NCBI GenBank assembly: GCA_002633005.1
Contig: NMRA01000025.1
Span: 941,338-995,716 of the forward strand
Direction: 5' to 3'
From: Phoronis australis
Lineage: Eukaryota > Animalia > Phoronida
DNA length: 54,379 nt
Part shown: piece after piece, positions 3,601 to 24,778 of the stretch
Position numbering within the stretch: the first letter of the stretch is position 1
Layout: every line of letters begins with the position of its first letter
The notes under the pieces: model-generated
What the model was told of the DNA's origin: nothing
The model's database searches: none
The model's input: the letters and a program-made list of their open reading frames with translations, nothing else
Made by a program: the position numbers and the translations under genes

Positions 3601-6600
3601 CTGCATTGCGTTTCCATCACAATTTGATTAATCGCCATACCCTTGCCATTTACTGAGTTCACAATTTGATTAATCGCCATACCCTTGCCATTTACTGAGT
3701 TCAGGCTAAAGCAAGAAATAAAAAACCTCCCTGCAGCAAGAAAATACAAACTGCAGAAACCATCCAATAGCTTTACCTTTCAAGGCCAGTAAATATCAGC
3801 ATTCAACTAACCTTTCCTCTGAGCCACCAGCATAGTATTCATTTCCTTGATTTTCGTCCTTTTTTTCTGCTTGCTTTAATCCACCAATAGTACCAAACCT
3901 GCATTGAACCACAACATTATCACAAGGCTATTCAATAGTTCACTTTCTGCCACCAAAATCAAAAAAATTTGAACAAAGCAAAAATAAAGTTTAAGGAAAG
4001 TCAGTTCATTTGCCATTTCTCTGCAAATAGAGACAAATATTTTCCAGCACCAGGGCCCTCGTTGATCGGAGAGGAAAGCTGGCTGTGACTTCTGATGAGA
4101 ATTTTTTCGTACAAGGAGAAAATTCTACCTCCTGATCACCATCAATGGTACCCCCACCATGCTGCAAGCTCTCATAGGCTCTGCCTCATTTTGTGCTTTT
4201 CCAAATTGTCACCTGTGTGGGTGATTTGAACCTCAAGGGGAGTTTTTTAATCACTTGAGGGGAATTTTGGGGGCTCGTGAGGGCAATTTCGCGTGATTTT
4301 TCAATATTTTTCAGAGGGGGACAGGGCTGATATTTAGCCCCAAAATCGAGGGATTGAGGGCCCTGAGTACTCCATTTTTGGCATATCCCATATATTGCAC
4401 AGTCCTAGTTGTTCTGTGCAATAGTTAGAAATGATACCTGGAAGGTTTACTTGTCCTCTGCGGTGGTGGTGATGCAGATCTGACAGGAGGTTGAACAGGA
4501 GGTGGAAGTTCATCGGCATCCGGACCTTCATCAAAGAATCTGGCTAGGGCAATCTGAAACAAAAAAATGACTACTTACACATTGGTCGGGCGCAACAAGC
4601 AAAAGGGAGACTAGTATAGAAATACTGACAGATTCTGAGGGTTATATTAGGTCACATGGATAGAGGGGGAGCAATAAGGCCGAAGGAAGGTTTGAATGTC
4701 GGTTACCAAATGAATGCGAGGAAGAAAAGGAGATCGAATTTATTTATTTATTTAAACTTCTTTAAAAGACTGGGTGATGATGTTTAACAAGGGCATAAGA
4801 TCAAAATACAACTTTATCTTACTGCTTTCCCCGTTCGATCCACAAACATCCGAAGAAGCTGTGTAACTTGTGTATTGCCACTGCGTATTCACTTTTACTA
4901 CCAACTTTTGCATGGAGATGAAGTTTTCCCTGTCAGGTTAAGGTGTGTGGCAGTTAATTTGGGCAAGATTACAAGTGGCTGGGACCAAATATAGCCAGCC
5001 AGCTAACTGTATGAAGACTATCATCAAAATACAGATGGGTACCACTGTGTGTTGAGCTCCGTTAGACCACGAAATTTCACACAGCCCAGGTAGTTGAACT
5101 CGTAACCTTGATGTGAAACTTTAATTAAAATGTAACAAAGAAAAGTTTGTCGTCATTTTGAAAACAGTGCAGTTATGTTACGTGCATGCACCATTTTCTA
5201 AAATTTTGCGACATCTCTTGGGAGATGATGACAACTTCAGTCAGCAGCAAAATTTGTTCCGAAATTTGGTTAGCTGGTATTAAAATACTAAAAACTTGTA
5301 ACGAAATACAACCAGTTCCACTAATTTGTTGTGACATGTACGCAAGCTCGTGAAAGAAACATTTGATTGACGAATCGGTGAAAACAGAAAGTGGCCAACA
5401 GGTGACACAATATTTCATGGCGCTGAAAACCGACACAAAAGACTGCATCAACAACCAATAAATAATTTAGTATACTCAAGGAAGATTGTAGTTTTATTTT
5501 TGTGTCAGATTTTATTAGGCCATTTTTTACCCACATTGGTGCAAAGCTGTATATTTAGCATGCAGCTTTGCACCAAAGCTACGTGGCGAGCTGCCCAGAT
5601 ATTTACACGCAAGGGAAACACTGTTACACAGGGGGCAGAGCATGATCAATATATCCCTCCTGAGACGTTTGAGTACATCTCTGACTTTGGTTCGTGGATA
5701 TCACCTCAGCCTCAGGCTTAACTGGGTGCCACTGTGGAAAAAATCAACACGTCATTGCTGTTTGACAGTATATTTGACAGCTGGAACACTGCCTGGTGCG
5801 TCCAAAAGCCATTCGGCTAATGAGAAAATTCTTATTGATTGGTATATGATTTGGAAGTGCTTTATTTGACTGTAAGTAATGCACGGAAACAGAAATTCAT
5901 TCAACACTGACACTGTCATCGACATCGGTATGCCGACAGTTAGGCAACACGTAGCCCTTCGGTTGGCCATTTACATTTAGGGGCTACATAGGCAATGACC
6001 ATCGCCTCTGTAGGCCCGAACCAGAGGCGATGCAGAGGCTATAGGCGCTCTGTACGCCGGAAGCTTTTCGTCGAATTATGCCTCGCACCGACTAAACCAT
6101 CAAAGACACGTTGTTATAAATACCTTTTGCGCATAGAGGAACACCTTAGGAGGTTGTCAATGTGCTTAAGTCCTTCCAACTCGAACAAATACTCCCATTA
6201 TGAAACTTTTTCTTCGATCAGTCCCTATTTCAGTTCTCAAAATCGTGAAATCAAAATTTTCATTTTTTTTTAACCAGGCCGAAGGTCAGAAGTTGCGATC
6301 CTACCGGCGAACTTTGAAAGCTGAAGTTCCCGCCCTTTGCGTACGTGCTGCCGGGAACCAGCCGTGCATTTGCCGTGTTGTTAAACATTAAAATGTCAAA
6401 TATGTGCACAAAGACTATTAAATGTCATATCAACAGCATTTATTTTTATCAAATACAAACAATAATTCATTGAAATATAAACAGTTTCAAGTAACGCCAA
6501 TTAAAGACAAGTATAAGTGGTGGCATTTTGGAAACGAACATTTGACTGACAAGACCGCAATGGCTCACCTTTGGCCTATTCAAAAATTGAGGTTATGAAG

Positions 6601-8280
6601 TCACATCACCTAGCGAGCGCGGTAAAAATTGGAGCGTGCGCAGTACAAAAATTTTGATTTCACTATTTTGGGAACTGAAATAGGGACTGCTCGAAGAAAA
6701 AGTTTCATAACGGGAGTATTTGTTCGAGTTGGAAGGACTTAAACACATCGACAACCTCCTAAGGTGTTCCTCTATGCGCAAAAGGTATTTATAACAATGT
6801 GGCTTTGATGGTTTAGTCGGTGCAAGGCATAATTCGCCGAAAAGCTTCCGGCGTACAGAGCGCCTATAGCCTCTGCATCGCCTCTGGTTCGGGCCAACAG
6901 AGGCGATGGTCATTGCCTAGGGGCTACAGTACTTCTGTTGTGAAAGTGCTTCCGGTGAATCACATATGAGCCTCTGTTAGCCACTCGCTAACGGGCAATT
7001 GCCTATTAGCTGAATGGTTAGCACGCTCGCCGGTTAAATCGGGGTTGCTGGTTCGATTCCCGAGGTCGGGCAATCTCGGCTATTACGACAAATGGCGTAG
7101 TCGGCAAACGGATGATCTACCGATGAAGCACTGCCAACTAGTACCCACGGACCTCGGGACAGCGCGCGTTGAAGGTTCCAGGAGTCAAGGACCTGTATGA
7201 GAGACGACCTTGTGTTCACCTGTGTTGTGGTGGTAAAGGTACCAAGGGACGTTGATGACCTGTATGCGAGACATCCTGGTGTTCACCTTCCTGTCGTGTG
7301 CCCGTTCCGTAGGAAAGGGGGGAATGTTGTAGATGTGCTTCCGGTGAATTATATGAGCCTCTGTTAGCTACTCGCTAACGGGCAATTGCCTATTAGCTGA
7401 ATGGTTAGCACGCTTGCCGGTTTTATGGGGGTCGTAGGTTCGATCCCCGGGTCGGGTAATCTCGGCTATTACTACAATTGGCGTAGTCGGCAAACGGATG
7501 ATATACCGATGAAGCACTTCATAGACCCTGGGTCCTGAGACAGCACCCTTGTTGGTAGGGTACAGGCATAATGTAAGGTGCATGTACAGGCATAATGTAA
7601 GGTGCATGTACAGACAGGGTGTAAGGTACGTGTACAAGCATAATGTAAGGTACGTGTGCAGGCATGGCGTAAGGTGCATGTACAGGCATAATGTAAGGTA
7701 CACCTAGTTGGCTGATGGCGTGCTTGTTGATAGGAAAGGGGGGAATGTTGTGAAAGTGCTTCCGGTGAATCACATATGAGCCTCTGTTAGCCACTCGCTA
7801 ACGGGCAATTGCCTATTAGCTGAATGGTTAGCACGCTCGCCGGTTAAATCGGGGTCGCTGGTTCGATTCCCGAGGTCGGGCAATCTCGGCTATTACGACA
7901 CTTCCATTCGCTTCCTGTACGGATTTCATTACATATATTTTAAACGGGCGGTAGGCCAAATCCGGCCACCGATTTTGAATTTTCACATCGTCAAAAATAC
8001 AGTCCACGCTTAAAATTATCACTTAAAAAGTGCTTACTTTCTTCATTGTAATTGCCTAGCCGACGGTCAAAATGAAAAAGGACTGTGTCATGCTGTTTCC
8101 TTGCCTCTGTCAAATCAGTTTGGCACTTACAAAACCAATCAAAAGCAATCAAACTTATTTTAAAGAAGTATTTACATCAAGCTTCCAAGCGGATGATTCT
8201 AGATAGAACTGGGCTCTTTCTTTCTCTACTGCAGTTACGTTAATGAACTCAGACAGCAAACTACTTCGATCTGTGTCCAT
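558..8280 (-). CDS. NSFL1C: NSFL1 cofactor p47 (p97/VCP UBA-SEP-UBX adaptor), 5' part; gene continues beyond the left window edge
   Basis: Exons 8280-8176, 4553-4438, 3898-3812 and 635-558 have GT/AG boundaries and compatible phases. They give MDTDRSSLLSEFINVTAVEKERAQFYLESSAWKLD-IALARFFDEG...RFGTIGGL...EYYAGGSEES-GEVIIGPSKKKNASKFVEDMMKAARE, matching the remembered p47 pattern [58 protein letters not shown]. Confidence 0.95.
784..946. mobile_element. MITE with CAGGGGC-type TIR and apparent 5-bp TSD
   Basis: CAGGGGCAGATCTAG...CTAAATCCGTCACTG flanked by CCACA on both sides. Confidence 0.65.
1094..2586 (-). mobile_element. Helentron/HINE-like non-autonomous element with internal higher-order tandem array
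   Basis: Terminal palindrome TGCGTCCACATA-TAAA-TATGTGGGCGCA, short GACG microsatellite, internal repeats of about 150 bp; related copies in the opposite orientation at about 18566-19161 and 20238-20836. Confidence 0.6.
3617..3702 (+). repeat. Perfect 42-bp tandem duplication
   Basis: TCACAATTTGATTAATCGCCATACCCTTGCCATTTACTGAGT x2. Confidence 0.9.
3812..3898 (-). CDS. NSFL1C: NSFL1C coding exon 3
   Basis: Acceptor TGCAG; (R)FGTIGGLKQAEKKDENQGNEYYAGGSEE(S); donor GTTAGT; 87 nt, phase 2/2. Confidence 0.92.
4051..4365. mobile_element. MITE with CAGGGCCCTC TIR
   Basis: CAGGGCCCTC...GAGGGCCCTG; flanks AGCAC/AGTAC. Confidence 0.65.
4438..4553 (-). CDS. NSFL1C: NSFL1C coding exon 2
   Basis: Acceptor TTTCAG; IALARFFDEGPDADELPPPVQPPVRSASPPPQRTSKPS; donor GTATCA. 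Confidence 0.92.
5989..6919. mobile_element. Non-autonomous Mutator/MULE-like foldback DNA transposon
   Basis: Highly similar TIRs of about 270 bp (5989-6260 / 6648-6919) starting TAGGCAATGACC; perfect 9-bp TSD GGGGCTACA at 5980-5988 and 6920-6928. Confidence 0.88.
7001..7072 (+). pseudogene. tRNA-like Pol III cassette inside LTR1 (repeated in LTR2 and LTR3); not a canonical tRNA
   Basis: A box TAGCTGAATGG 7007-7017, D-stem GCT/AGC, B box GGTTCGATTCC 7050-7060; acceptor and T stems imperfect. Confidence 0.65.
7558..7700 (+). repeat. 24-bp minisatellite inside the second TRIM internal domain
   Basis: Unit approximately GGTGCATGTACAGGCATAATGTAA x6. Confidence 0.9.
8176..8280 (-). CDS. NSFL1C: NSFL1C coding exon 1 (UBA-like domain start)
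   Basis: ATG at 8280-8278; 35 codons MDTDRSSLLSEFINVTAVEKERAQFYLESSAWKLD; donor GTAAAT. Confidence 0.93.
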
Positions 8281-8497
8281 TTTTATGCCGGAAGTAAACG
8301 ATGTTTTGCGTCTCCGAATAGAAATAACTTACAAGTTTGAAAAATAACAAAAAATCGATTTTGAAGCTCTCAGTCTTTAAATCTGGACAAAATAAAATAT
8401 CGAACCAGTTTCATTCAATTTCTGAGTTTAATAGCATGAATCTTTTAGAATTTTTGTGACAGACTGCAACGAATATTGAAATCGAAAAGGTTAACAG
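8281..8497. promoter_or_regulatory. Probable bidirectional promoter of NSFL1C and the Pil1-like gene, including a likely non-coding first exon ending at 8497
   Basis: Divergent start codons about 555 bp apart; ETS-type CCGGAAGT at 8288-8295; strong plus-strand donor CAG|GTGAGT at 8497/8498. Confidence 0.6.
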
Positions 8498-8835: not shown

Positions 8836-8864
8836 ATGGACAGGGCTGCTAAGGCAGTGAGGCG
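8836..8864 (+). CDS. Pil1-like gene, first coding exon
   Basis: AAGATGG start context; MDRAAKAVR(R); donor GTAAGT; phase 2 matches the next exon. Confidence 0.7.
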
Positions 8865-11722
8865 GTAAGTTAAAGCATGTCTTGCTTTTACATGACAAAC
8901 AACTCTGGCACTGGTTGGATGATATAGCGGTCCCTGAATCACTGAATCTGAACATTGACAAAGTGGGTCGTTGTGATTTATCATAATTCATCGCCAACTT
9001 ATCATTTGGTCCGGGCATTGGCTGTTTGACTCTTAGGCTTGCTTGAGTCGAGTGAGTGCAAGAAAACTCAGAGCAGTAACATGGTCGCTGGAGGCACAGG
9101 CGTCCTCAGCTTCAGATCGTCCCCAATACACTATATGTATACTACTATTACTACGCTGGAGGATACGAGAGAGCCTTGTGCGTTTTACTTACAATACTCA
9201 ATAGCTGATTCACCAACCTGACCTGTTTGGCTGAGTAGGCTATTTGATGTACCTGTTACCTCTGCACCACATATTTCTGTGCATATTGAAGTTCAAAACT
9301 TTTCGGGTGAGTTATAAATGTTTTTTGGCTCATTTTCCTGATTTGTCAGGTCAAAAACAAAAATTGCTTTATGATTTCAATAGGTACGGTAAAATTTCAC
9401 CAATTTCAGACAAAAAAATAAGTGTCAAAATTCTTCTTTTTTCTCTTTTCAAAAGCTTCTTACACAACTCTCACTCGTCCTAAAGTGGTGACTGTTTTTA
9501 TCATGTTGACCAATGACGATACTTTAGTTTCAAAACAATTGTTGGACTGATTGCAAAAATTGGCTTATTTGCCTGCCTTCTTTCTATATGTATATCCAGG
9601 CTGCTGAAGGGTGCCCTCAATTTAACATCTTTTTATACAGATAGTGTTCTCAGCATTTCATTACTTGATATACATTCACGTTCTTTCGGAATCCTCTGTT
9701 AATTGAAAGTGCCTTTTATCTTCCAGGGGTGGAGTCAAGCTGCTGTCGCTGTCTGGTGGCCATGGCGATTTGAATATGATTATCTCTGAACTTAATGATG
9801 TCAAACATTCATCCAAAACTTTTACGAAAGCTCAGAAATCAGGTATACCCTTTTGTTTATCACTGCCAACAGGGTTTGTGGATATGTTTTGGAGAAAGTG
9901 GTGTGGACAAAAGGCCTTCTAATGTTGATGTTGCTTGGGCTGTGTCCCCTCGAAACTGACAACAATTTTTTTGGGGGTTCGCTTTGTTGAGTGTGGTTGC
10001 GCTTAATGAAAATCTACAGACCTTTGGAGGTATTCTAAGTTTTTGTTTTTATTCTGAATGCACTTGTGAGAGACTTAGTAACGATTGCTTAAATGAGTAG
10101 CATAATTTTCAGTATGGGTGGTCTGGTATCCTGAAAGTGCAATTAGAATGTTTAGGTTGGCTGGTTTCCGTAAGTTCTAAATGATCAGTTCCATGTAAGG
10201 AGTACATTTTGCATTTAATACCATGCCAAACTTTAATTGGTTGTTTTCTGTGTCTGCTTGGGACTACTCGTAATAGTCACTTGGGGGTGGCCTCTGCATT
10301 TTGATAACCAGTTTACTCCACTGATCGATGTAGCACACATCAAACTGGGTCTCAACATCTAGAACCCCTGTCAGTGACTATTGCTGCAAAACCTCAACAA
10401 TTTGCAGTGCAATAAAGTACCGGTGAACTTAATGCTTAAACCTTTTTGTTTGTCATTTAGTAAGATTCATCATTTTGAACAATTATGGACATTCACAGGA
10501 ATGTTGGAAACTAGAAAAAGTTCAGTTTTGGCAATAATTTTTTTGGGGGTTAGTGAGAATCTACTAGTACCACCATTCTCTACTTTAGCATGGCAACTCA
10601 ACGATTTAAAATGTGCTTCTGAAGAGTAGGTTGTTTAGCTGCCAAAATCGTTCTTAAATGTAAACAATCTGAGGTTATGTCTGGGTTCTAGAGTCTCTTG
10701 TTATGTGATAGCCACAGATTTCCCCAGAACAAATGATAAGTGGCTGTAAATTTTTTCCTTATAATATTCACAACTGGCAACTGTAAGTAGATGGTAGTGT
10801 AATTAAGTTACAAAGTTTGTCTTGTTTTTCGGTATCAGGTGCTGTTGTTTTGGTGAGTGGATATGCTGGGCTGTACTTGTTGGTCTACGGTAAAATTTCT
10901 TCAGTTTGGAACGTATATATGGAGATCAAGTGAAACTTCATGTTGTCAAATTTCTCAACCTAATTGACAACAGGAAATTTTATTTTGCTTTTTGCTTGGT
11001 TTGTATGGTGTAGCTATTACCATGTGACGTTTGGTAAAATTTTGAGCATGTGCAAAAATGTAGTAAGACTATGAAAAAATAGAAAAACGACAATTTTAAC
11101 AATTCTTTTTGTCCCAAATTGAAAAATTTTACCGTACCTAAGTTTGGCGTCATTTACCTGGAGCTACACAACATTGTGTCATATTGGAGCACAGCTCTTT
11201 CATGCTTACATGACATCATATTTTACAAGTACATAGTCAAGAATACAAAGGGTCTAATTAGTTGTTAAATTTTTGCCACCATTTTCTGAATGTCCCAAGT
11301 GCTCTTTCTGTATGAACAATATCAAAGTTATAGTGCACGGTTGCCGGAATTAAGTGCCTTTAAGGTGGGGTTACATCATGTATATCAGAATTCTCTCTAT
11401 TAAGTACATGTACATTTAAATGCTTGACTTAAGAAGTTTAATTTCTTTTGAAATTTAACTTCTTATTTCTTTGAAATTTAATTTTTGAGAAATAAAAATT
11501 GTCGAATATAAATTAAAATACCATGTCAAAATCAAGGAAGAATCCGTGTGTTCCAAACCTGATATTTAAACTTGCATTATCTGGTGCTCGTGAGTGCTCA
11601 GATTACAGTCATGTCATGTCGAAACAGGATATTTACTGAACTGTTACAGTATCTGATAATTTCATGTGAATATTTTTACTCCGGGAAATATGATGCTCTG
11701 GATTTTATCAGCTGTGTGTGTG

Positions 11723-11757
<35 letters not shown>

Positions 11758-14700
11758 GTGTCTGTGCGTGTGCGTGTGTTTATTCAATGACGAGCGTGGG
11801 TCCATTGGTTTTTGTTTTGATAATTACGGTACAGTTCATTGAAATGTACCACAAAAAGGTAGATTAAATGATGAATTACATGGAGGGGAAATGAGAAAAC
11901 AAGAATACCGAACATTCAGTGTAGTTGGTCCTTTACGTAATGGACAAAAAGCTGTCATGACGATGTGACTGGCAAGCTAATGCTACACTTTTGTAATTGG
12001 ACAGTGATTAAATAATGTGCAAACGGTATTGTCAGTCAGTGATTATGGTTGCGATTATAGAATTGTAAAATGTAACTCACTAGCGTTCTGAGAGCACAAG
12101 CATGACTTCTGTTTGGCCCAATATCAAGACCAGTAAAATAAGATGATATGAAATTCCTTTCATTCACAAAATTTAATGGCTGGTGATTCAATGTGAATCA
12201 TCTTTCTATTTTGCAAATGGTGATTTGATGCCATGGCAATAGCACAGAATTAAAAATGCTGTGAAATTTCTCTGCTTCAAACTCTACGTACACGTTACAT
12301 ATAAGTTGCGTGACATTGCACATTTGCTAACGAAGTCTTCGTAACTCCATAAGCGATCATATCTCAGAAAAGGATGATGAAGTTTTTACGAAACTTTCAG
12401 ATTCTTTCTTTTATGCACTGTTATCTAAAGTGCTGTTAGAATTAAATCAGTTCTTGGCCACAGTAAGATTAAAAACCGGACGATCGCCGCACAAATGACT
12501 ACTCTGTATCTCTCACTTCACTTCATGGATGTCACCTGATATGTATGTTGGCACTTTTTGTCCTATTGAAATATCCTGATGCTGTCTACGGTAATGAATA
12601 GACGAAACGTTGATTTATCATGAACTTCTTCATTTGTGCGGCGATCGTCCGGTTTTTAATTTTTGAGAGATATTTATGAGGGGCTATAAAAATTCAACTT
12701 TTGTTAATTTCTTGAAAAAACTTAACATTTTCATTAAGCAAAACTTGGTCATGTTACAAATGTTGTGTTTAATGTACCTGTCTTTACTAAATGTTACTAA
12801 TAATACAAGGTCAAACTCAGAGGTACAAGGCTGTCAGTTGTCACTCAAATCGAATCTCCCGGTGCCAGGCAGAGAGCAGTTCTGTTTGTATCCTAAATCC
12901 TTTCATTCACTGAATCACCATAGTATTGAGTCAACGAGTTGTACATAGCATAGAAAGATGCTGCCAAAAATGAAGACAAAACGTTCTTATCCCAAAGGAT
13001 TTGTGCATCTGCATGCATGCTAGTACAACTGTTGAGAACGAATGCATCAACTCTTAAGTCGTTGCACCGCCTCTGTCACTTTGTGTTCACTAATGCAGCA
13101 AGTTGTTAAAAAATATTAATCCTCTCCAAAATTCATTATTTGGATTGGTAATTTAACATTTGGCTGTTTTGATCTCGTGCTCACATTGCGCTTTAACCAC
13201 CAACTTGATTTCTGTCGTCCATTTTGTACTTTGTTTCTTGGCTCCGCGGCGCATGATATGTATTCAATGAATTGTTGGTCTACTTACTGTTGGTTCCGCC
13301 TTTTGACCTAGTTAACTCGAGGGATATGAAACCCCACGTACAAAATTAAAGCATTTTAGTAATAATTAAGTTAATTACCCAGTTCTAATTTCATTTGACA
13401 TTGCAAATGAATGTTGAAATAGCGAACAGGTTAAGACATGTATAGGTTGTATTGACCGAAAGCAAGTTTTCACTGGAAAATGGCATGGCGAATTTCACCG
13501 AAACTTTCTGGTGTTTATATTTATTCATCAATCTCAAAAACACGATTAGGATTTTCCTTTTATACACATAATTTTTGCGTACTGTAAGAGAGACGAATAC
13601 GACTGATATTTTTTTACAAAAATATCCTATGCTTTGTGAGATAATTTGGTATAGAAACAAAACTGAACGTCAAGTCATCAAAAATTCCTAGCTGTGTTTT
13701 TGAGGCAAATTGAGAAGTTTAATTTTAAAAGGGTTTCATTAACATCCACGAAGAGGTTACTTTGCTGTGAATGAACTTTTTTAAAACGGAAATTTGTCTT
13801 AAAAAGGTGGTAATAATAATGGTACATAAATGTACTGGTAAAACATTATTTTTTAATCTCTGATCTTTTTTCTTTCAGAATATATATACTTTTACTAGTT
13901 TGTATAGCCTGGTTTTTGTATACGAGTTAGGATGAAGGTCACTAAATAAGGTTTGAGATAACCGCGCAGTACAGCAATTACCAGTATGTCATGATTGATC
14001 AGGTACATTTTGTGTTTATGTGTCAAGACAGATTGAATTAATTTTGAATTTTCTCATCTGTTTTCTCATTGGCTGTTGAGCCAGTTGTCAGATCATACTG
14101 TGGAATGTTGTGTCACCCACAGGTAAACCTTTGTGTACCTATCCACCCACACACACTCACCTGTATTAGTTATCTTTTGTTTACCTTCCCCACTGCTCTC
14201 TCTGTACTTTCCTGTATGGTAATCTTATGAGCTTAATAGAGCTTAATAATTGTATTTTTATGCTGTTGTGGGTAAAGTGCATAGTATTGTTTTTGAATTT
14301 AGAAATATTGCCTTTTTTCGTCTTGAGATAAAAAGTACATGACTTCATTGCGTTATGAGGATGTATAAATTAAACAACAAAATTTAACTAATTAATATGT
14401 TTAATCATAAACTATTGTACATGGACCGCCAACTCTGTGTTTGTTCTCAATGAACAAGAGCTATCTTTTTGACGTTTTAGACCTAATGAAATCAAATTAA
14501 AGTGCTAAAATTAGTGAAATGCTAACAATTAGGCCAAATTTACATAGGACTGTAATCTGCTGAGCCCTTACTAGAATAAGGACCTGGTGAATCTTTAAAA
14601 TTCTTCTCAACTCCCTGGGAGAACATATTCAAGGTACCTAAACTACTAGTACACGGTTAACGGACATAAACACGGTCACAGATGCATGAACACGACTCAC

Positions 14701-17700
14701 GTACCTACAAACACCCTTCACTGACTCACAAACACGGGAACGGACTCACAAAACATGATCCCTTCACCCAAATACACGGGACATGGACTTACATTCACAA
14801 AGAAACATGGTTAACGGACCGCCAAACACGGGTCACGGACTCCATGGGCTACCTGGGTCAGCTGAAATCTACATTTTGTCTGTAAACCATGTTTGGCGGT
14901 CCGTTAATCGTCTTTCTTCGTGAATGTGAGTCCGTGTCCCGTGTATTTGGGTGAATGGATCATGTTTTGTGAGTCCGTTCCCGTGTTTGTGAGTCAGTGA
15001 ACGGTTTTTGCAGGTACGCGAGTCGTGTTCATGCGTCCGTGACCGTGTTTATGAGTCCGTTAACCGTGTAGTTTTGGTACCTTGATATTGCCTGCAAACC
15101 TCGTTGGTCCGTACCTGTGAATTCAAGCTTAAATTTTATCAAAGTTTCAAGTGCTAAAATGCCTACATCAAAAAATTCATGTCGGCTGCTGTATGTATGT
15201 CTGGCCCTCAGTAGCCAACACTGTTATTTCCTTGTGCACTGCCAAAACCAACGTATTTTGCAGCATATTAGACAGAGAGCGTCTCAAATTCTGATTTTAA
15301 AGTGATTTATATTTTTTTCTAAGCCGTTGGCTCTGATCAACACATTTGGATTGTTTCATGTATTGTAACCCTGTTTTAGTCTGTCTGTTTTAGTGTCAGT
15401 ATTGTCACGTGTTGAATTATGAGACAGAATTTACTATTTCTGTTTCACAAGCAAAGACTTCTTGTCTTACTAGTAAGTGCCTCATTAGTGTGTTGCCTAT
15501 ACACATCCCCATAAATACTTCTTGTCTTAACTTAGTGGCAACACACTTATAGGCACTTAATAAGTGTCTATAAGTGTGTTACCACTACACATCCCGTATC
15601 CATGGAATACTTCTGAATTGTACATATAAATTTCTTCTCACATGTTAATTTTTTCTGATGCCTAACTTTAATTGAAAATGTTCGAGGTAACTGTTAGGGA
15701 TATTGCGGTTTCCTTTTCAGTTGTTGTACTGTACTTACCGATCATGTGATATCTGTAAGTGGTCATGTGCCGTGGACAATTGAATCTGTTCTTAGTGAAA
15801 TTTTCCAATCATGCGCTTGCAATGTGTACAAGGAGCAGATGGGGAAGGCAGCGGTAGATAATGATTCTGAAGCAGGATGTGACTTAGCTGCTTTTTGTGT
15901 TGTTCATTATTTCATTATCAGTTTGGAATTTTACCGAAAATGAAAGCAAATGTTTATTGCGTCATGAACAAAGTGTTTATATTATCCTCTAATGTCAATC
16001 TGATTTCAAGTCACACTCTTATGTCTATTTTACAAGTGCATACACAACTTAATGGTAGTTTCATGTTCATCCTGCAACTGGGACGATGTTGTACATTAAA
16101 ATGTGATCAAGACAAAACACTGTTGAGTGGAGTTAGGTGGCATTCCATCAACATTTAAATGCCATCACATTTATATACCATCTGTGGTGTGTGTGTGTGT
16201 GTGTGTGTGTGTGTGNGTGTGTGTGTGTGTGTGTGTGTCTGTGTGTGCGTGCGTGGATTTGTTGGTAACAGCTAATCACTTCAACTTATGTTGAACATAA
16301 CATTACATTGGGATTGTTAAAATTTGCTCTTTTGAAAATGTATTATTTTCTTTTTTTGGACTTATACACAATGAGATTTTATCTTTTTTAAATTGATACG
16401 TGATTTGCACATTATTAATTTAAGAAAAGTAAGGATAGGATAATGCTGCTTTTATTAAAAAAATGTGTTACAGCTCATATAGTTCATATTTTTAATAAAA
16501 TTTAAATAATTGTGTAAAATTATACTGCCTTTTATTGTTATTCTGTGTGCTGCTGTTGTATTTGTAATGACCTTCTTACATGCAAATGACTTTCAAATTG
16601 GACCCATGCTACTGAATATTTATGATACTGTACTTACAAAGCGTCATTGGACCCGTGCAACTGAATATTTATGAGACTGTACTTTTAAAGCGTCATTGGA
16701 CCCGTGCTACTGAATATTTATGAGACTGTACTTTACCAAGCGTCATTGGACCCGTGCAACTGAATGTTTATGAGACTGTACTTACAAAGCGTCATTGGAC
16801 CCGTGCTACTGAATATTTATGAGACTGTACTTTACAAAGCGTCATTGGACCCGTGCTACTAAATATTTATGAGACTTTACTTTACAAAGCGTCATTGGAC
16901 CCGTGCTACTGAATATTTATGAGACTGTACTTTACCAAGCGTCATTGGACCCGTGCTACTGAATATTTATGAGACTGTACTTTACCAAGCGTCATTGGAC
17001 CCATGCTACTGAATATTTATGAGACTGTACTTTACAAAGCGTCGGCTCTATGTATGCATCTTTAATAAATATTAAAAGCCATAGGTGTATTATATTATCA
17101 ATATGGTGAAGATGTAGTCAGTCAGTGTTCAAAGGCACGTCTAAACATGGACCCAGCACAATGTATTTTGTGAACATGAATGCAAATATGTGAAAATATT
17201 CAAGAGCTGGTTTTCATTATGAATGTGGCAACTGACTTCACGGCAGACAAGGGAATTTTTTTTGTCAAATTTCTCAGCAGAAATAAAGATTATTAAGAAA
17301 ATGTTGCTCTTTTATTAGCTTGTTTTGCATTGTGTAGATATCATAACAACATTGGTTTGAGGTTCTGTTATTTGCAACAAGTTAAAAATCAGCCTCTGAA
17401 AAATAGAAAACCCACATTTTGGCAAAAGATATATTGATGTTTTATCATACCTAATGGCATCCCTAGTCACCTTAATATGCCCTTTCTTTAACTTATTTGT
17501 GTCAAATGGCACAAAAATGCTGCGTTGGGCAAACACTGGACAATGGGTCTCTTGGAATTTATCGGTTGACAAACCCAACCATGACCATTTTGTGTGTTTA
17601 TTTCAGCTGCTGAATATCACATGCGATGGGCTGCATTTGAACAAAACAGAGCCATTCAGGTATGAAAATTGGTATCCAATTATACACATTGTTTCCATTC

Positions 17701-20700
17701 AAGTATGTACAGCAACCGGTGCGGTGCGTATCTATGGTATGCACAACCCAGCTACGCCCATTCACCTTCAAGAAATAGTATCTATGCTTCATTAATGCAT
17801 TGGACGTAATTTACCAAAATTTATCAGAAACTTTCAATGTGATTCAAAATAACACCAGAATCAACGGAAATGATTTTTTCCAAAGAAAACCTAGTCTAGA
17901 TGTCTTTTCACCAAATTTTCTGTTGTTATGATCCAGATTAATTTTATGCAGTAAATGCGCTGTCCACTTGCCCATGCTTACTAAGTGCCAGTAGGTAACT
18001 TGTTTATGTGCTTTGATATAAATTCTCCAGTAATGTGGTGATGAGTAAGTTGTCAGGTTTTGTCTAACGTCATGATATGTGCAGTTAAAAACTTAATGCC
18101 AATAATTTGTACAGCGCACTCCTTCCTGTGTTATCTGTGTTGTCAGTGATTTACGTTTGCCTGTAGGATACCGCCATGCACATGCTAGAACTGAATTCCA
18201 TGTGGACGGAGGCACAGCAGGAGTTCACACATCAGCTAAAGGAATATCGGTCTACGTTCGAAAGAATTCTGGAAGGAGAAAAACGTGTAGACCTGGCCAA
18301 GAACAAGTTGGTGAGTTGTGCTTATTTGCTAGTTGTTAATCAACAAGGTACATGTTTCACGACCTTGTTGGGTGTATTCACGTCATATCTCACTCCAAAA
18401 TTATTTGATCAAACCATTTTTTATTTTTCGGGTCATGCTCCATTTTTCGATATCATTTTATCGTTTCTAAGAGCTGTTTCTAGTCCATAATTTTATTTGA
18501 ATTTTGTATGTCTGTGTCGTTTTCTTATCAATTTCACTTTTCTTGTCATTCAGTAGCTGTTTCCATTTTTATGCATCCCCATATGTAGGCGTATAATGCC
18601 ATCGTCCTTGTCCGTTTGTCCAGGTTTGTGTTCATCCGCCCAGTTGGCCATCATTTGTTAGATTTGGCATATAGCCATCTATTAAGGAAGTGATGATGCC
18701 TTCCTGATTTCGGTTGGATTCGTTGTATTCTGGTCATTTTTACTGTTCTCTATTTTCATGGCGTCCTTTTCTGTCTATTCGACATGATTTTGGGATGGTT
18801 CTGACTGTTGTGGTGTCCCCTTGTGTCAATTTAGTTGTTTTTCCCCGTGGATCTATATTTACAAATGATGGATATTCATGAAATTTGGCAAATGAGTTAC
18901 TACCGTGTAGATGGCAGCACCTGTTCAGTTGCTTACATCCCTAAAGTCTTTTTATTATTTTGTGTCATCTGCCTCTCTATCCTCTAAACTGCTTCAAGAA
19001 TCATGATGAAAGTTGGCAGTTGTGTTCCTGTTGAAGAGAGCAGTGTCGTTTAGTAGTACTGCTCCCTCTGTTGGGAATGTTTGAAATAATGACCGTCTGT
19101 TGTATTTGTGCTGTAAGAGATGCACACGGAAGTCGCACATAACACTTTGCGTTGCTCTTGCATTTTTCAGTGTCAGTGTGAATCAAAAGAGGGGAAAATA
19201 AAAAAGGAATTAAAGAAATGTGCAAAGGTAGGTCCAGTATTTTAGAAATTCTAATCTTAAACAAACTTCAATTGATAAATTAACAGACTCAAAGGCTTCT
19301 TAAAATTTAAAAAAAAACGCATGCCATGAATGTGCAGTTTGATAGTTTATTGACTATCAAAAAGCTGCCTATAGTTGTTATAGTACGCTTTGTTTTGACT
19401 GTTACCTGCAGTCACAAACCAAAACATCTCAATGATTCTGATAACTGTTTTCTTTTCAGAAAGCTACTCAGGACGAAATCCGTGTTTTGGAAAATCGATT
19501 GATGCAAGCGGAACAAGCGCGGGACTTAGCACAATTAGAGCGTAATAACTTTCCTCCGATGCATTATGTTTTGAAATTTGATTTTGAACATATGCCTTTT
19601 TCTGCCTCTAGATGTCAAAGAACTTTAATCATCCGTGTACTACTAGGACTATCATAAAATTTTCTTTGTTGAACACTGCATTCAAAAAGACGGCTTACAA
19701 GTTTTGACAGATCATGCAAAGTCGCGTTCATTTTGGAAAGTTAGTGATCAGCCTGGCCTATCAGTGCTAATAAAATGATGGTCACTGAAAAGTGACAGGA
19801 AGATTAAGTGTAATGTTGAATTATGGGGGCAACTCTGTCAACATCTGCCCTGCGCACTACTGCTGGATTAAGATATGTAACAACTAGTAGATCACAAAGG
19901 ATTTGCCTGCTAAATATTTTGTTTTGGAGCATCTTTAAGTGTATCGATTAGCAAAATAGTTCTTCAAGTATAGGAAATCTCTTAAAAATGTTGCAACATG
20001 TTCTGTTCCACTTATTGCTCCTTAAACTCTAATTTTCTTTGAGTAGTCTTCATTTCGTTTTTATGTGCCCTTCCTGAGATGGGCTGTGTTATGGTATAAT
20101 TAGAGAAAGAAATTTCATCCAGATAGCACTATGACGTTGGACATTTTTGACCAACTTGGTCTGTGGTTGTCCTCAGAACGATGGATAGACTTGTGGTCAT
20201 GTGATCTGATTTCTCGCCTAGGAGAATGATGTCACAGGTTTTTTATGCGCTCACATACTTATATGTGAACGCATTATGCCCTCGTCTCCGTCTGTCCGTC
20301 TGGCGTCTGCTGCTCTATCTCCAAAACTCTCTAACGTATGTTCCTGAAATTTTGCACATATGTTCTTTTCATGGATGGGACGACATGATCGAACTTTCGG
20401 ACAGATCTGAATACTGGTGTGCCCCCTAGTGGCAATTTTATTTTTTTACGCTTACCTCTATATCTTCTAATTTCTTCAACCTATTTTCATAAAATTTGGC
20501 ATGTAGGCATCTATTAGTGAGATGACGCTATCCTGTTTTCGGATGGATTCGACATAATTTTCTCTAACAACAGACGACGACGTCTTTCAAGCAGATCCAA
20601 AGAATGCTGTGCCCCATAATGGCAATTTCATTTTTTCTGTTTTCCTTGACAGATTTTTATGAAATTTGGTAAATAACTTTCTATTAAATACGCAATGGCA

Positions 20701-23700
20701 TGTTCCTGTTTTCAGATAGATTGGATGTTTTTGCGCCATTTAGTGGCTACTTTTATGAAACAAATAAACACCTCAAGAAGCACACCGTTTGCGGGGCATT
20801 TGTGAGCGCATTTCAACGCTCTGAGTTGCTCTTGTTGTAGATAGTGCTGACCAACCACATGATTCATCTTTCTATCACCGACTCTCCCTATCAAAAGACT
20901 TTTAATCCTTGAATCCAGTTTGGTTTATCAGGAATTAAAGCAGGTGATAGAGTGATGAAGCGCGAGTTTGCTTAATACCCTCAACCAAACACCTATGACA
21001 TTTTGGACCTCTTTTTTGTCTCAGTGATAGAAAAGATTCGAGAGAATGAAGTCACCAAGGTGATTCGCTACAAAGCAGCTCTATTACGACTATCAGAGGC
21101 TTATGCTGAATTGGGTAAAAAGTGCTCCATCATCTTCAAAACGCAAATGGTGAGTTGTGAACTGAATAGTACTTTGAATAACTTTCCCATGAAAAACATT
21201 TGGCTTCTCATTGTCAATGTCTGATACCGACTAATAAATTTCCAATGTAGAGGTTGACAATACCTAATAAACAAATCCGACAAGAAATTAACATAGATGT
21301 CATGATTGGGATGGAATGTGTTTACAACACAACCCATATCAAATAATTCAAACAGGAAGTGAACAATACGTCACTGACTTATTTAATTACTATCGACTAG
21401 CACATTGGTTCAAATTGGCCAAGTTCAACAAAAATAAATTTGTAAAGTCTTCAGCTCATGTCACCTTGTCTGTGAACTGTGTAGATTAATGTATTAGCTA
21501 TGTGTTTTCTTAAGCAGAGTTTAAGTGGTGATTTACCAGTTACAACTTTTGACAAAATGTGATTTCCCATAAAGAAGCGGGAAGACTTAGAACCAAGGTG
21601 GTGGAACTAGACCATCTCATATGGTGGCATCACACTTTTCATCCAAATTAAACGGTTCGATAATACCCCTGCATTGTGTTTGATCAAAGTTGGTGTTTTC
21701 ATGATATGAACACAAGATGTTTATCCTTCAATCACGACATTGCAGAATGTTACTCAGGAAATCCCTGATATAGAAACTCAGGAGCTGGAAGACATCAAGT
21801 ACACGGGTGCTGGAACATCAAGGGCACTCGTGCACGAAGCCAAAGAGAGACTGAAGAGATATCGTCGACAGTCGACTCAAATGCCGACATCTCCAATCGG
21901 TCAGCCATTAGTCAGTCCACCTACGCCAGAGCGATCCGACTCCCTGCAATGCTCATTTCAAGGTTAGATTTTATTACTATTTGTTACCAAAAGCTGTTGT
22001 AAGATGGTTAAAACATTAAATATTCCTTGATAGTTTTGTCAGAAAATTCCCAGACCTGTTCACAAACTGACCGGAAGATGTCATGAATAGGGAGTGGTGG
22101 TCATTTCTTTTCTTATCCACATCTGTGACCCAATCCGGAAGGGACCAGCAGAATTGATATAACTCATGCCCTTCATTGTCACGCTTTCTGCTGATCAGAT
22201 TGTGAATAAGTCATTTCCCATCATGAGAGCTAATTGGGTGACCAGTAAAAATTACTGATAATTTCTAATTACAAAACAGTTCTCCAGTCCTTACTAATGT
22301 AATACACCTTTGTTCTCTGTCATGAGGCAAGATTACTCTGATGGTGAATTTGGCTTATGTCCTGTTGTCTTTACGGGGAATTACGTGTCATTTTGTCTGA
22401 ATACTTATGGCTTGTACTGTACCTTGCCTGGGCCCAGTGGGTACAGATATATCCTACAACTTACGTGTTGCATTAAGACACTATCTTCCTCAGGTGCTAA
22501 CCGGGGATGATAACAGTTTCGCTGCCTACTAACGGTACTGCTATCACCGGCATCACCAGCATCAGTAAACCACCGGGTAGTGTCTGTTGGAGTCAGTCAG
22601 AGTAGATTGTCTTTGTGTGAAGCTACGATTTTCTAGATCTAGTCCTAATCTAGCTGGTTACGTGACGGACATAGGCGCTTGTGATGGACATAGGCACTTG
22701 TGATGGACATAGGCACTTGTGACGGACATAGGCACTTGTGACGGACATAGGCACTTGTGACGGACATAGGCACTTGTGACGGACATAGGCACTTGTGTCA
22801 TGATAATCAAAGTGTATTAAAACATTGCATTAGTTGGAAATTTATGCTGGACTTTTAGACAGAGTTAATGGTAAGCTCGATATATTATACTGTTTGTACT
22901 TTTTTACAGCAAAATTTTATTTTTGTATTTACAACGTGAATTATTTTTTTCAATTTTGGTGCGTGTCATCACTGTAGGTATTACTACAAACAAATGTTGG
23001 TGACTGAATGTGTGGCTTTCAGATTTTGATGATCTTCCACCCGCCTATGACCTTTTGGAGAATGTACCCATCCAGCAGACTCAACAGAGCTTTACCAGCC
23101 AAACACAGGTATAATAAGGAAGACATTACATTTAGTGCTAGTGTTGGAGTGACCACAAGTTTTGATTTGTGTTAGCACACACCGATACTTAGGCAAGAAA
23201 TGAGTCATTATTTTGCTAGCTGTTGCGAATTAGAATCATGGTAAGGATACTGTTCTATTTAAATGACGGACACGATAATGTACATTGGCTGTCATATTAC
23301 TAGATGATATAGATCATCTTTTAACCTGTAAAATCCATATCTCAGTGTTACCCAGTTTCCAATAGAAATTGTTGGGCTGGGCTAAGTTTATGTGGTGTCT
23401 CGATCGATGTAATGGAACCTCTATAGTTACAGATTTGTGAGTGGATATTTTCATGATATGCTTTAGTGATCATTACTAATTGGAAAGTGTTGTTCACATA
23501 ATTTGTAGTAATGCTTTGAGACTTATCTTGACATAGATGATTGCTCTTTCAAAGCATCGCCATCTATAAGCCTATACTGTAACTAAAGTAAACCTTGTGG
23601 ATAAGCTTACTTTCTTTCTGCACAAAACAAGCGAAATGTCCAATGAAATTTGAGCTGTCATTCTTGGGACTTTCAGTCATCTTCAGCACTAGAAGAGGTT

Positions 23701-23763
23701 ACGGCCGATGACTTGACTGGTGCCATGGGTGGGCTCAATATACGACGAGAAACCGGTGTTTGA
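8836..23763 (+). CDS. Pil1/Lsp1 (eisosome)-like BAR-domain protein, 331 aa, 10 coding exons
   Basis: Exons 8836-8864, 9727-9842, 17607-17659, 18167-18310, 19171-19227, 19460-19541, 21025-21149, 21746-21962, 23023-23108 and 23677-23763 join in frame (996 nt, all GT-AG). Protein: MDRAAKAVRRGGVKLLSLSGGHGDLNMIISELNDVKHSSKTFTKAQKSAAEYHMRWAAFEQNRAIQDTAMHMLELNSMWTEAQQEFTHQLKEYRSTFERILEGEKRVDLAKNKLCQCESKEGKIKKELKKCAKKATQDEIRVLENRLMQAEQARDLAQLELIEKIRENEVTKVIRYKAALLRLSEAYAELGKKCSIIFKTQMNVTQEIPDIETQELEDIKYTGAGTSRALVHEAKERLKRYRRQSTQMPTSPIGQPLVSPPTPERSDSLQCSFQDFDDLPPAYDLLENVPIQQTQQSFTSQTQSSSALEEVTADDLTGAMGGLNIRRETGV. The gene model is well supported; the family call is an alignment by eye to remembered yeast Pil1. 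Confidence 0.8.
9727..9842 (+). CDS. Pil1-like gene exon
   Basis: TTTTATCTTCCAG acceptor; GGVKLLSLSGGHGDLNMIISELNDVKHSSKTFTKAQKS; donor GTATAC. Confidence 0.85.
10886..11137. mobile_element. MITE with TACGGTAAAATTT termini; related ends at about 9381 and 25540-25777
   Basis: TACGGTAAAATTTCTTCAGTTTGG...CCCAAATTGAAAAATTTTACCGTA inverted pair. Confidence 0.55.
11713..11779 (+). repeat. (GT)n microsatellite
   Basis: Direct reading. Confidence 0.97.
12473..12655. mobile_element. Small TTAA-flanked MITE (Kolobok-like)
   Basis: Perfect TIR AAACCGGACGATCGCCGCACAAATGA with TTAA on both sides. Confidence 0.7.
14630..15084. mobile_element. Palindromic foldback MITE with arms of about 200 bp and 5-bp TSD
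   Basis: CAAGGTACC...GGTACCTTG; arms 14630-~14830 and ~14883-15084 are reverse complements; ATATT on both sides. Confidence 0.85.
16187..16254 (+). repeat. (GT)n microsatellite
   Basis: Direct reading; contains an N. Confidence 0.97.
16597..17043 (+). repeat. 49-50 bp minisatellite, 9 copies
   Basis: Unit ATTGGACCCGTGCTACTGAATATTTATGAGACTGTACTTTACAAAGCGTC. Confidence 0.97.
17607..17659 (+). CDS. Pil1-like gene exon
   Basis: TTTATTTCAG acceptor; AAEYHMRWAAFEQNRAIQ; donor GTATGA. Confidence 0.85.
18167..18310 (+). CDS. Pil1-like gene exon
   Basis: CTGTAG acceptor; DTAMHMLELNSMWTEAQQEFTHQLKEYRSTFERILEGEKRVDLAKNKL; donor GTGAGT. Confidence 0.9.
18566..19161 (+). mobile_element. Degenerate copy of the same HINE-like family
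   Basis: TTTTATGCATCCCCATATG..ATAATGCCATCGTC start, shared internal ATCTATT..GATG..TTTCGG.TGGATTCG block, GTTGCTCTTG end. Confidence 0.45.
19171..19227 (+). CDS. Pil1-like gene exon
   Basis: TTTTTCAG acceptor; CQCESKEGKIKKELKKCAK; donor GTAGGT. Confidence 0.82.
19460..19541 (+). CDS. Pil1-like gene exon
   Basis: TTCTTTTCAG acceptor; KATQDEIRVLENRLMQAEQARDLAQLE; donor GTAATA. Confidence 0.87.
20238..20836 (+). mobile_element. Helentron/HINE-like element, shorter copy
   Basis: TTTTATGCGCTCACATA..TATGTGAACGCA..CCGTCTGTCCGTC start and GCATTTCAACGCTCTGAGTTGCTCTTGTT end; homologous to 1094-2586. Confidence 0.6.
21025..21149 (+). CDS. Pil1-like gene exon
   Basis: TTTTTGTCTCAG acceptor; LIEKIRENEVTKVIRYKAALLRLSEAYAELGKKCSIIFKTQM; donor GTGAGT. 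Confidence 0.9.
21746..21962 (+). CDS. Pil1-like gene exon
   Basis: TGCAG acceptor; NVTQEIPDIETQELEDIKYTGAGTSRALVHEAKERLKRY...CSFQ; donor GTTAGA. Confidence 0.9.
22662..22797 (+). repeat. 19-bp minisatellite, about 7 copies
   Basis: Unit GTGACGGACATAGGCACTT. Confidence 0.95.
23023..23108 (+). CDS. Pil1-like gene exon (PPxY motif)
   Basis: CTTTCAG acceptor; DFDDLPPAYDLLENVPIQQTQQSFTSQTQ; donor GTATAA. Confidence 0.82.
23677..23763 (+). CDS. Pil1-like gene last coding exon
   Basis: CTTTCAG acceptor; SSSALEEVTADDLTGAMGGLNIRRETGV-TGA. Confidence 0.8.
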   Translation, partial: SSSALEEVTADDLTGAMGGLNIRRETGV

Positions 23764-24198
23764 CATTTGATGCAAGCATAGACGAAGCTGATTTTGTGAA
23801 TATTTGTTATTGGTTGATTCTGTGCTTCTACTCTCATAAGGTATCTGCGAGTTGGAACTTTTTATGGGTCTTCTTACGTACGCAATGAATTATGGGAAGT
23901 GCGGACTCCGCTCACATTGCGTTACACTACGTGTTCCCGTAATTTGTCGTGCTGGTATGCGTAAGAGGAGTCATAACAGGGTATCTAGGCTTTGGTTTAG
24001 GTCTATTCAAATCTGCGCAAGTTGCTGTGACAAAGCAAACTCGTTTTTGTGCAATTTATCACGTCATGAGTGAGAGGGATAGTAGGGTTGAGTTTACGTT
24101 ATGCTAGCATTTCCATGCGAAGGGTTTCAGTGTGCAATCCATCTGTTTATAGCCAAATACAGTTTGCTAGCAGCATTTAGTATGTTACTGCTGAGGAA

Positions 24199-24355
24199 CA
24201 GGGAGGGGTACTCACATTGGTAAAAGGGAGCAGGGAGGGGTACTCACGTTTGTACAAGGGAGCAGGGAGGGGTACTCACGTTTGTACAAGGGAGCAGGGA
24301 GGGGTACTCACGTTTGTACAAGGGAGCAGGGAGGGGTACTCATGTTCGTACAAGG
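24199..24355 (+). repeat. 32-bp G-rich minisatellite, about 5 copies
   Basis: Unit AGGGAGCAGGGAGGGGTACTCACGTTTGTACA. Confidence 0.95.
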
Positions 24356-24778
24356 CATATTTTAGTTCATTTTTTAACTGGGTCATGCCAGTTATGAACA
24401 CTCCACTGTCCGTCACCGTACTTACTTTATTTGTTATTTTCACGTAAAGCAGCATTAAACCCATTCTTTCTCTCTAGATAATGTAATTTGATGTAAGTCA
24501 CTTGCTGTTGTTAAATGTGTCTCATCTTGTTCATTATTTAGTCTGTAGTCATCTCTGGGTTTGAGAAGATCTTGCAGTCCATTATTTTTTCTGACCAATT
24601 TTGTAAAATGTGACCTGAAATTTTACAAGATTGGCTTGTAGAAACAACAAACTATCAGTTCTCTGGAAGCCATGACATGGCCTCCAGTTTGACTAAAGAA
24701 CAATTTGAGACTGGTTTAATAACGGTTAGTGGGTAAAGTCAAAACCTTTTTGACGAAGTATGGGTTAAATGCTGCTTA

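Follow-up and report, generated by a model that had tools for sequence, protein, structure and literature searches.

The window analysed here, a stretch of 54,379 nucleotides (nt) on contig NMRA01000025.1 of the phoronid Phoronis australis, contains an intron-rich gene whose product resembles Pil1 and Lsp1, the core proteins of the yeast eisosome. Pil1 has been described as 'not conserved beyond fungal kingdom' (PMC9619184) and its matches as restricted to fungi (PMC3128537), and in a 2026 review eisosomes appear under yeast (PMC13312728). The membrane furrows are reported to belong to walled cells (PMC5753163, PMC13353863). The locus thus raises the question of whether an animal carries a genuine Pil1/Lsp1-type protein and what such a protein might do in a cell without a wall. 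The gene is real, intact and transcribed at low level, and comparisons through its relatives support its product as a distant branch of the Pil1/Lsp1 family, with a predicted four-helix BAR fold at residues 23-241. We consider it reasonably probable that this invertebrate branch is a curvature-sensing or curvature-making membrane scaffold, which would recruit WW-domain ubiquitin ligases through its tail.

The initial annotation of the locus had assembled ten exons, with nine canonical introns, into one open reading frame (ORF), and this structure is confirmed. The exons (Table 1) join into 996 nt that encode 331 residues and a stop codon, and all nine introns, which range from 232 to 7,764 nt, are of the GT-AG type. 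All nine junctions are present in each of three raw-read RNA runs carrying the same species label (X1-X3), and the reads for junctions 1-9, summed over about a fifth of each run, number 19, 32, 27, 28, 27, 37, 30, 45 and 50. The first mate of the junction-spanning reads always lies on the - strand, an orientation that would correspond to + strand RNA in most stranded libraries. A contig from a further run, X4, also links exons 1-4. A hidden Markov model of the family, built without any window sequence and searched against all window ORFs of at least 12 residues, recovers exons 2-8 in collinear order (E 1e-19 to 0.02), scores exons 1 and 10 weakly and does not recover exon 9. Two introns contain repeats. 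Intron 2 holds a 176-nt inverted repeat at 14665-15053, 90% complementary and resembling a miniature inverted-repeat transposable element, on which multi-copy reads accumulate. A repeat at 20148-20840 in intron 6 is deeply covered by RNA reads of one strand with dissimilar flanks, and probably belongs to a repeat family transcribed from elsewhere in the genome.

The encoded protein belongs to a widespread invertebrate family. Queried with exon 4, a set of 1.84 billion representatives yielded 41 relatives. A profile built on 27 of these picked out 136 of the 7,994 candidates that were scored. A word-based search with the same exon gave five candidates, none of them significant. Named members come from a sponge, a priapulid, a brachiopod, a nemertean, many gastropods and bivalves, chelicerates, a myriapod, crustaceans and early-branching insects. 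No named fungal, choanoflagellate, Capsaspora, cnidarian, deuterostome, nematode or fly member surfaced, which is no evidence of absence, since the word-based searches scored about 8,000 candidates each. The closest relative of the spliced ORF is a protein of the brachiopod Lingula (P0081), with 59% identity over residues 1-245 and no gaps. Precomputed PF13805 assignments are attached to 28 of the 120 listed relatives, and the GenBank name of the amphipod protein KAF2344383.1 (Trinorchestia) is 'Eisosome component PIL1/LSP1, partial', so the earlier guess that such proteins already sit in databases was right. Two other names found among relatives, 'arp2/3 complex-activating protein rickA' and 'zinc-binding alcohol dehydrogenase', were dismissed as probable artefacts of a proline-rich tail and of fusion with a neighbouring gene; the Saccostrea model P0116 bears alcohol dehydrogenase domains. 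In this and two further mollusc models (P0012, P0106) the family is fused to, or named as, a zinc-binding alcohol dehydrogenase, probably the adjacent gene.

Family membership was assessed through these relatives, and the fold through the AlphaFold model of the Lingula protein as a proxy. First, three family profiles were searched against 177,635 PDB sequences, and Lsp1 was the sole match at E <= 0.001 (1.1e-5, 7e-4 and 1.3e-5). The Pil1 chain 8qbf was matched weakly by the family profile (E 0.86), and a single-sequence PDB search with one relative (P0032) did not reach Lsp1. The Pfam family Pil1 (PF13805) is matched by 52 of 118 members at E <= 0.01, the best at 6.4e-8, and no other BAR family was matched in these members at the same threshold, with 13 families listed. 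The curated Pil1 cut-off was passed by 6 of 27 and 2 of 9 relatives in two scans. In the ESM Atlas, a fungal LSP1 cluster (0.90, 190 features) stands directly behind the animal cluster and ahead of the FAM92 (0.84) and BAR (0.83) clusters; one exon searched there and two single exons searched against the PDB returned nothing useful. A mention of PF13805 in a flatworm cystatin paper was rejected as a chance match (E 0.07).

Structural comparison points in the same direction. The Lingula model contains 220 residues with a predicted local distance difference test (pLDDT) score of at least 90, and its helices span residues 23-58, 63-134, 137-205 and 224-241. Its helical core is thus residues 23-241, compared with about 240 residues read from the ORF at the outset. 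Foldseek places Lsp1/Pil1 structures at ranks 1-6 (E 1e-8 to 6e-7), followed by SNX1-SNX5 (2e-5). VIA-align, which is independent of Foldseek, gives Lsp1 Z-scores of 17.8 (root-mean-square deviation 2.7, 213 aligned residues) and 16.7, and the runners-up are arfaptin (13.5), FAM92A1 (12.8) and SNX (12.8). Model residues 6-246 align on residues 31-266 of 8qb8. The proposal of a Pil1/Lsp1-type BAR protein is supported, on close relatives, by profile, Pfam, language-model and structure searches alike, and the best match in the PDB profiles, Foldseek and VIA-align was Lsp1/Pil1 rather than another family.

The disordered tail carries two conserved motifs. One is PPxY, a type of sequence known to bind the WW domains of NEDD4/Rsp5 ligases. 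It is present in 111 of 112 tails, compared with a mean of 12.8 and a maximum of 23 in shuffled tails, and is retained in 31 of 32 tails after thinning to <60% identity; its usual place is about 14 residues past the core. The second motif, at the C-terminus, consists of hydrophobic residues spaced 4-3-2 that come after a run of acidic ones, and occurs in 70 of 112 tails against a shuffled mean of 3.7. The eight residues that precede it include on average 3.9 acidic ones. In the window protein, L316, M320, L323 and I325 fit the class 1a export pattern exactly. Export-signal patterns have a precision of 4-12%, and Ala or Thr at position 3 is typical of false positives (PMC3442415). The C-terminal element may be a conserved docking motif of uncertain partner, possibly a CRM1 export signal.

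Given this family, the window gene could encode the scaffold of a true animal eisosome, that is, a stable lattice shaped like a half-pipe beneath furrows of the plasma membrane that would buffer tension and shelter transporters as Pil1 and Lsp1 do in yeast. The fold, the fourth helix and the N-terminal amphipathic segment match Lsp1, and in yeast a link exists between eisosomes and the Rsp5-dependent turnover of transporters (PMC7183764), with which a PPxY tail is compatible. The yeast structures allow this reading to be weighed residue by residue. In Pil1/Lsp1, the phosphatidylinositol 4,5-bisphosphate site is formed by R126, K130 and R133 and the phosphatidylserine site by K66 and R70; F33, Y40, F42 and F50 contact sterol, and the amphipathic helix spans residues 39-48. 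The lattice contacts are residues 1-8, Y155-Y158 and, thirdly, 145 with 171-186 (PMC11324527; Kefauver et al. 2024). We mapped these positions through the profile alignment; for the phosphatidylinositol 4,5-bisphosphate site the register follows a part of it without gaps, not a residue-level structural overlay. R126 corresponds to R94, and 105 of 118 relatives keep K or R there. At the position of K66 the window protein has N33, where 98 of 116 relatives carry K. The R70 position is variable, with K or R one residue earlier in 115 of 116 relatives. In contrast, K130 and R133 correspond to E98 and L101, and neither position is K or R in any of the 118 relatives. Regarding the lattice, 94 of 101 relatives start directly at the amphipathic segment, so the contact of residues 1-8 has no counterpart. 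An aromatic residue at the tip, compared with Y155/Y158, is absent from the window protein and from 87 of 115 relatives (present in 28), and the third contact aligns to a charged stretch. The four sterol-contacting aromatics of yeast compare with none in the first 22 residues of the window protein and with any at all in just 13 of 87 relatives. These differences make a yeast-type lattice doubtful for the animal protein, which may not form true eisosomes because several furrow-building parts of yeast are missing, and the attribution of furrows to walled cells also counts against a true animal eisosome, which we regard as unlikely. The initial annotation had spoken of an eisosome-like membrane-scaffold system. 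Its Pil1-type BAR domain, animal origin and vertical descent are supported, whereas the step to an eisosome-like system is only partly so, given the non-basic K130/R133 positions in all 118 relatives, the missing contact of residues 1-8 and the missing sterol aromatics.

A membrane scaffold that docks ubiquitin ligases, our preferred reading, draws on other surfaces of the protein. K3, K6, R9 and R10 are family-conserved, and residues 1-11 have a hydrophobic moment of 0.54 and a charge of +3. The basic amphipathic segment is conserved in the family (moment 0.48-0.57) and is spanned by the 8qb8 alignment; in the Lingula model it has a pLDDT of about 53 and is non-helical. Two regions concentrate the charge, the N-terminus (+4, against a family median of +5) and the tip (+7 over residues 111-136, against +6 in the family), and helices 2 and 3 each contain one 7-residue insertion relative to Lsp1. 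The yeast double mutant K130E/R133E still binds membrane, at a lower level, and binding depends on an N-terminal segment (PMC3257569); thus, membrane binding by the animal protein remains likely. Two monomers would form an antiparallel, banana-shaped dimer of the elongated N-BAR type, somewhat longer than that of Lsp1 because of the insertions in both helices. Acidic lipids would be bound by the basic amphipathic N-terminus (residues 1-16) and also by a patch on helices 1 and 2 (33/36/40 and 91/94) and the lysine-rich tips, which would replace the R126/K130/R133 pocket of yeast. The PPxY motif of the disordered tail would bind NEDD4-family ligases, and this docking could couple curved membrane sites to the ubiquitination of membrane proteins and to their turnover. 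A second docking site would be provided by the C-terminal motif, which may be an export signal recognized by CRM1. Such an assembly would more likely be dynamic, of the endocytic or trafficking type, than a static lattice as in yeast.

Several observations weigh against this reading. Dimerization, lipid binding, localization and ligase binding are all extrapolated from BAR and Pil1 biology, and the Pfam and fold scores belong to relatives instead of the spliced window protein itself. The Lingula protein scores 24 bits for Pil1 against a cut-off of 27, Pil1 is missed at E <= 0.01 by 66 of 118 members, and none of seven single window exons searched against Pfam matched it. Identity to Lsp1 is just 17-21%, and helical bundles inflate Z-scores. 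The N-terminal 22 residues are low-confidence and non-helical in the monomer model, and some family-conserved basic residues are lost in the window protein, such as the lysine replaced by N33. In the tail, the window PPxY lies farther from the core than the family median, and Ala or Thr is common at the third hydrophobic position of the C-terminal motif in relatives.

The history of the gene was examined in a gene tree, in intron positions and in neighbouring genes. The 47-row tree recovers molluscs, chelicerates, decapods and insects each as groups, and joins the window protein to Lingula with support of 88/81, a weak value below the starred level. Introns 1-6 of the window gene recur at identical codon and phase in two related loci of other animals (L015 and L031); L014 shares introns 1-5, and five loci share intron 7. 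The position of intron 7 is read through in L014, L015, L016-L022 and L027. ATG101 lies downstream of the gene in tail-to-tail orientation, an arrangement that the window shares with 5 of 34 related loci. These five represent, by ATG101 identity, about three lineages besides that of the window, arthropod-like and spiralian-like by best matches. Downstream sequence is too short for this comparison in many of the 34 loci, and in L011 and L013 ATG101 is absent despite >2 kb of downstream sequence. This linkage is an old microsynteny, and together with the shared intron positions and the species-like gene tree it indicates ancient vertical inheritance of the family. An ancient transfer at the base of the animals would also be compatible with the data.

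The recurrent proximity of an autophagy gene bears on another possible role, that of a specialized shaper of membrane edges or organelles, comparable to Ssp1 and Meu14 at the rim of the forespore membrane, for example in gametogenesis, cell division or autophagosome growth. Fungi do redeploy Pil1-family folds outside eisosomes (PMC12470953), and the tail-to-tail arrangement with ATG101 would suit a role in autophagy. Gene linkage in animals often outlasts any common function, however, and the transcripts are low-level in all three RNA runs; we regard this role as quite improbable. An origin in a different BAR family (SNX-BAR, FAM92/CIBAR, arfaptin/ICA69 or F-BAR), or in a generic coiled coil convergent on Pil1, is largely refuted and very unlikely. 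Some members bear the UniRef names 'F-BAR domain-containing' or 'Sorting nexin/Vps5-like C-terminal domain', and the SNX, APPL, FAM92 and arfaptin folds do match the Lingula model, but every sequence-level method ranks Lsp1/Pil1 first without another BAR family, in structure Lsp1 leads by about 4 Z units, and the alignments of the BAR proteins ranked next end at model residues 201-219, before the fourth helix, where Lsp1 continues to 244. Lastly, fungal contamination or a recent horizontal transfer, which the initial annotation had argued against and in whose favour stands the published statement that Pil1 is unconserved beyond fungi (PMC9619184, PMC3128537), is refuted by nearest relatives that are animal (35-59% identity), by animal groups in the gene tree, and by common introns, animal neighbours and the repeated ATG101 linkage.

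Table 1. Positions of the Pil1-like gene, its parts and its neighbours (window coordinates unless a related locus is named).
Feature	Position	Strand	Content and evidence
Exon 1 (residues 1-10)	8836-8864	+	Start of basic amphipathic N-terminal segment; spliced reads
Exon 2 (residues 10-49)	9727-9842	+	Remainder of N-terminal segment and predicted BAR helix 1, basic positions 33/36/40; model, family profile
Exon 3 (residues 49-66)	17607-17659	+	End of helix 1; invariant Trp56 aligned to Lsp1 W89
Exon 4 (residues 67-114)	18167-18310	+	Predicted BAR helix 2; R94, E98 and L101 aligned to Pil1/Lsp1 R126, K130 and R133
Exon 5 (residues 115-133)	19171-19227	+	Lysine-rich tip of helix 2; includes 7-residue insertion relative to Lsp1
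Exon 6 (residues 134-161)	19460-19541	+	First half of predicted helix 3; model, family profile
Exon 7 (residues 161-202)	21025-21149	+	Second half of helix 3; invariant K172; second 7-residue insertion relative to Lsp1
Exon 8 (residues 203-275)	21746-21962	+	Y-x-G loop, predicted fourth helix, then onset of Pro/Ser-rich tail
Exon 9 (residues 275-303)	23023-23108	+	Tail; PPxY at residues 280-283 (23037-23048)
Exon 10 (residues 304-331, stop)	23677-23763	+	Acidic run, then hydrophobic x3-x2-x motif at residues 316-325 (23713-23742), export-signal-like
3' untranslated region	23764 to at least 24400	+	Same-strand read depth 5-19 in bin 23886-24400
ATTAAA	24454	+	Candidate only
p47/NSFL1C-type first coding exon	8158-8328	-	UBA-like domain; head-to-head; Pfam UBA_4 E 1.9e-7, above cut-off
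ATG101 exons	41922-45566	-	Tail-to-tail with Pil1-like gene
ATG101 in related loci	L008:1791-2273, L010:1679-2161, L012:5372-6009, L014:5558-5926, L015:5840-6600	-	Tail-to-tail with Pil1-like gene

Both neighbours named at the outset, NSFL1C and ATG101, were recovered, the former through its UBA_4 exon and the latter through its own exons (Table 1). Further putative parts of the p47/NSFL1C-like gene lie at 4428-4574 and 3799-3927 (-), although its second exon has a weak match (E 1.4). Its start codon and that of the Pil1-like gene are head-to-head and separated by 556 bp, so a common bidirectional promoter is likely. The p47-like neighbour was found in none of the 34 related loci, and conservation of this linkage is thus unsupported. 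Near-duplicate segments lie within the first intron of the p47-like gene (5992-6273 with 6593-6916, and 6963-7079 with 7773-7889). On the other side, 18 kb separate the Pil1-like gene from ATG101, and none of the 89 ORFs of at least 55 residues in this interval matches Pfam at E <= 0.001, which would still permit the small exons of an intervening gene. Two short frames at 31310-31776 (-) look like a broken endonuclease fragment of what we take to be a long interspersed nuclear element, with no Pfam match. Minisatellites occur in the window at 16597-17043 (period 50 nt), 22662-22797 (19 nt), 24195-24355 (32 nt) and 51301-51833 (57 nt).

Automatic annotation already tags some animal members as Pil1, and published descriptions call the family fungal-only. 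Our literature searches on animal members and family evolution found no paper that describes an animal Pil1 member; most subscription papers were outside their scope, and a prior mention is possible. A conserved, expressed and vertically inherited animal branch places the origin of the family at least at the animal-fungal split, unless an ancient transfer took place, and adds an unstudied class of BAR protein to the membrane-shaping toolkit of animals. It also constitutes a natural experiment, in which the Pil1 fold has a ligase-docking tail and lacks both the K130/R133 pocket and the lattice contact at its N-terminus. Two questions, the dependence of furrows on a cell wall and the ancestral role of Pil1, are thereby opened to direct study in the tractable hosts Aplysia, Biomphalaria, spiders, mayflies and sponges. 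As a tentative idea, and a rather doubtful one at present, wall-less invertebrate cells might keep an eisosome-type scaffold from the animal-fungal ancestor, with tension-buffering furrows, a rewired lipid surface and a PPxY tie to NEDD4-type ubiquitination. Such a scaffold would be a caveolin-independent counterpart of caveolae, perhaps lost in common model animals.

Finally, the ligase-docking scaffold that we favour can be placed among known systems. The animal BAR proteins arfaptin, FAM92A/CIBAR, SNX-BAR, amphiphysin/BIN1 and APPL share the superfamily fold with it (Z 12-13.5); however, their identity is 9-15%, they give no profile or Pfam match and leave the fourth helix uncovered, and the window protein has no PX, PH or SH3 partner domain. 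Ssp1 of S. cerevisiae and Meu14 of S. pombe also show a Pil1-type fold outside eisosomes, with rearranged basic patches (PMC12470953), although they are fungal and meiosis-specific, and are likened here by description, not by sequence. With Lsp1 and Pil1 of S. cerevisiae (PF13805; PDB 3PLT, 8QB7, 8QB8 and 8QB9), the protein shares the collinear four-helix BAR domain predicted from the proxy model, the basic amphipathic N-terminal segment, the Trp that ends helix 1, the Y-x-G loop before helix 4, the equivalent of R126 and a disordered tail. It differs from them in lacking a counterpart to about 33 N-terminal yeast residues, which include the contact of residues 1-8, in its Glu and Leu at K130/R133, in the general absence of the sterol aromatics and tip tyrosines, in its paired 7-residue insertions, lysine-rich tips, PPxY and C-terminal hydrophobic motif, and in a host without a cell wall. 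The closest system is the unnamed invertebrate family itself, represented by Lingula LOC106163101, Littorina XP_070199014.1, Priapulus XP_014680887.1, Amphimedon XP_011406753.1 and Trinorchestia KAF2344383.1. The window protein stands apart from these by a fairly long branch (0.52) and the loss of a few basic positions, and its gene does without the introns near residues 86 and 223 that some relatives have, whereas 35-59% core identity, the N-terminus, the PPxY, the C-terminal motif, introns and the ATG101 linkage are common to both.

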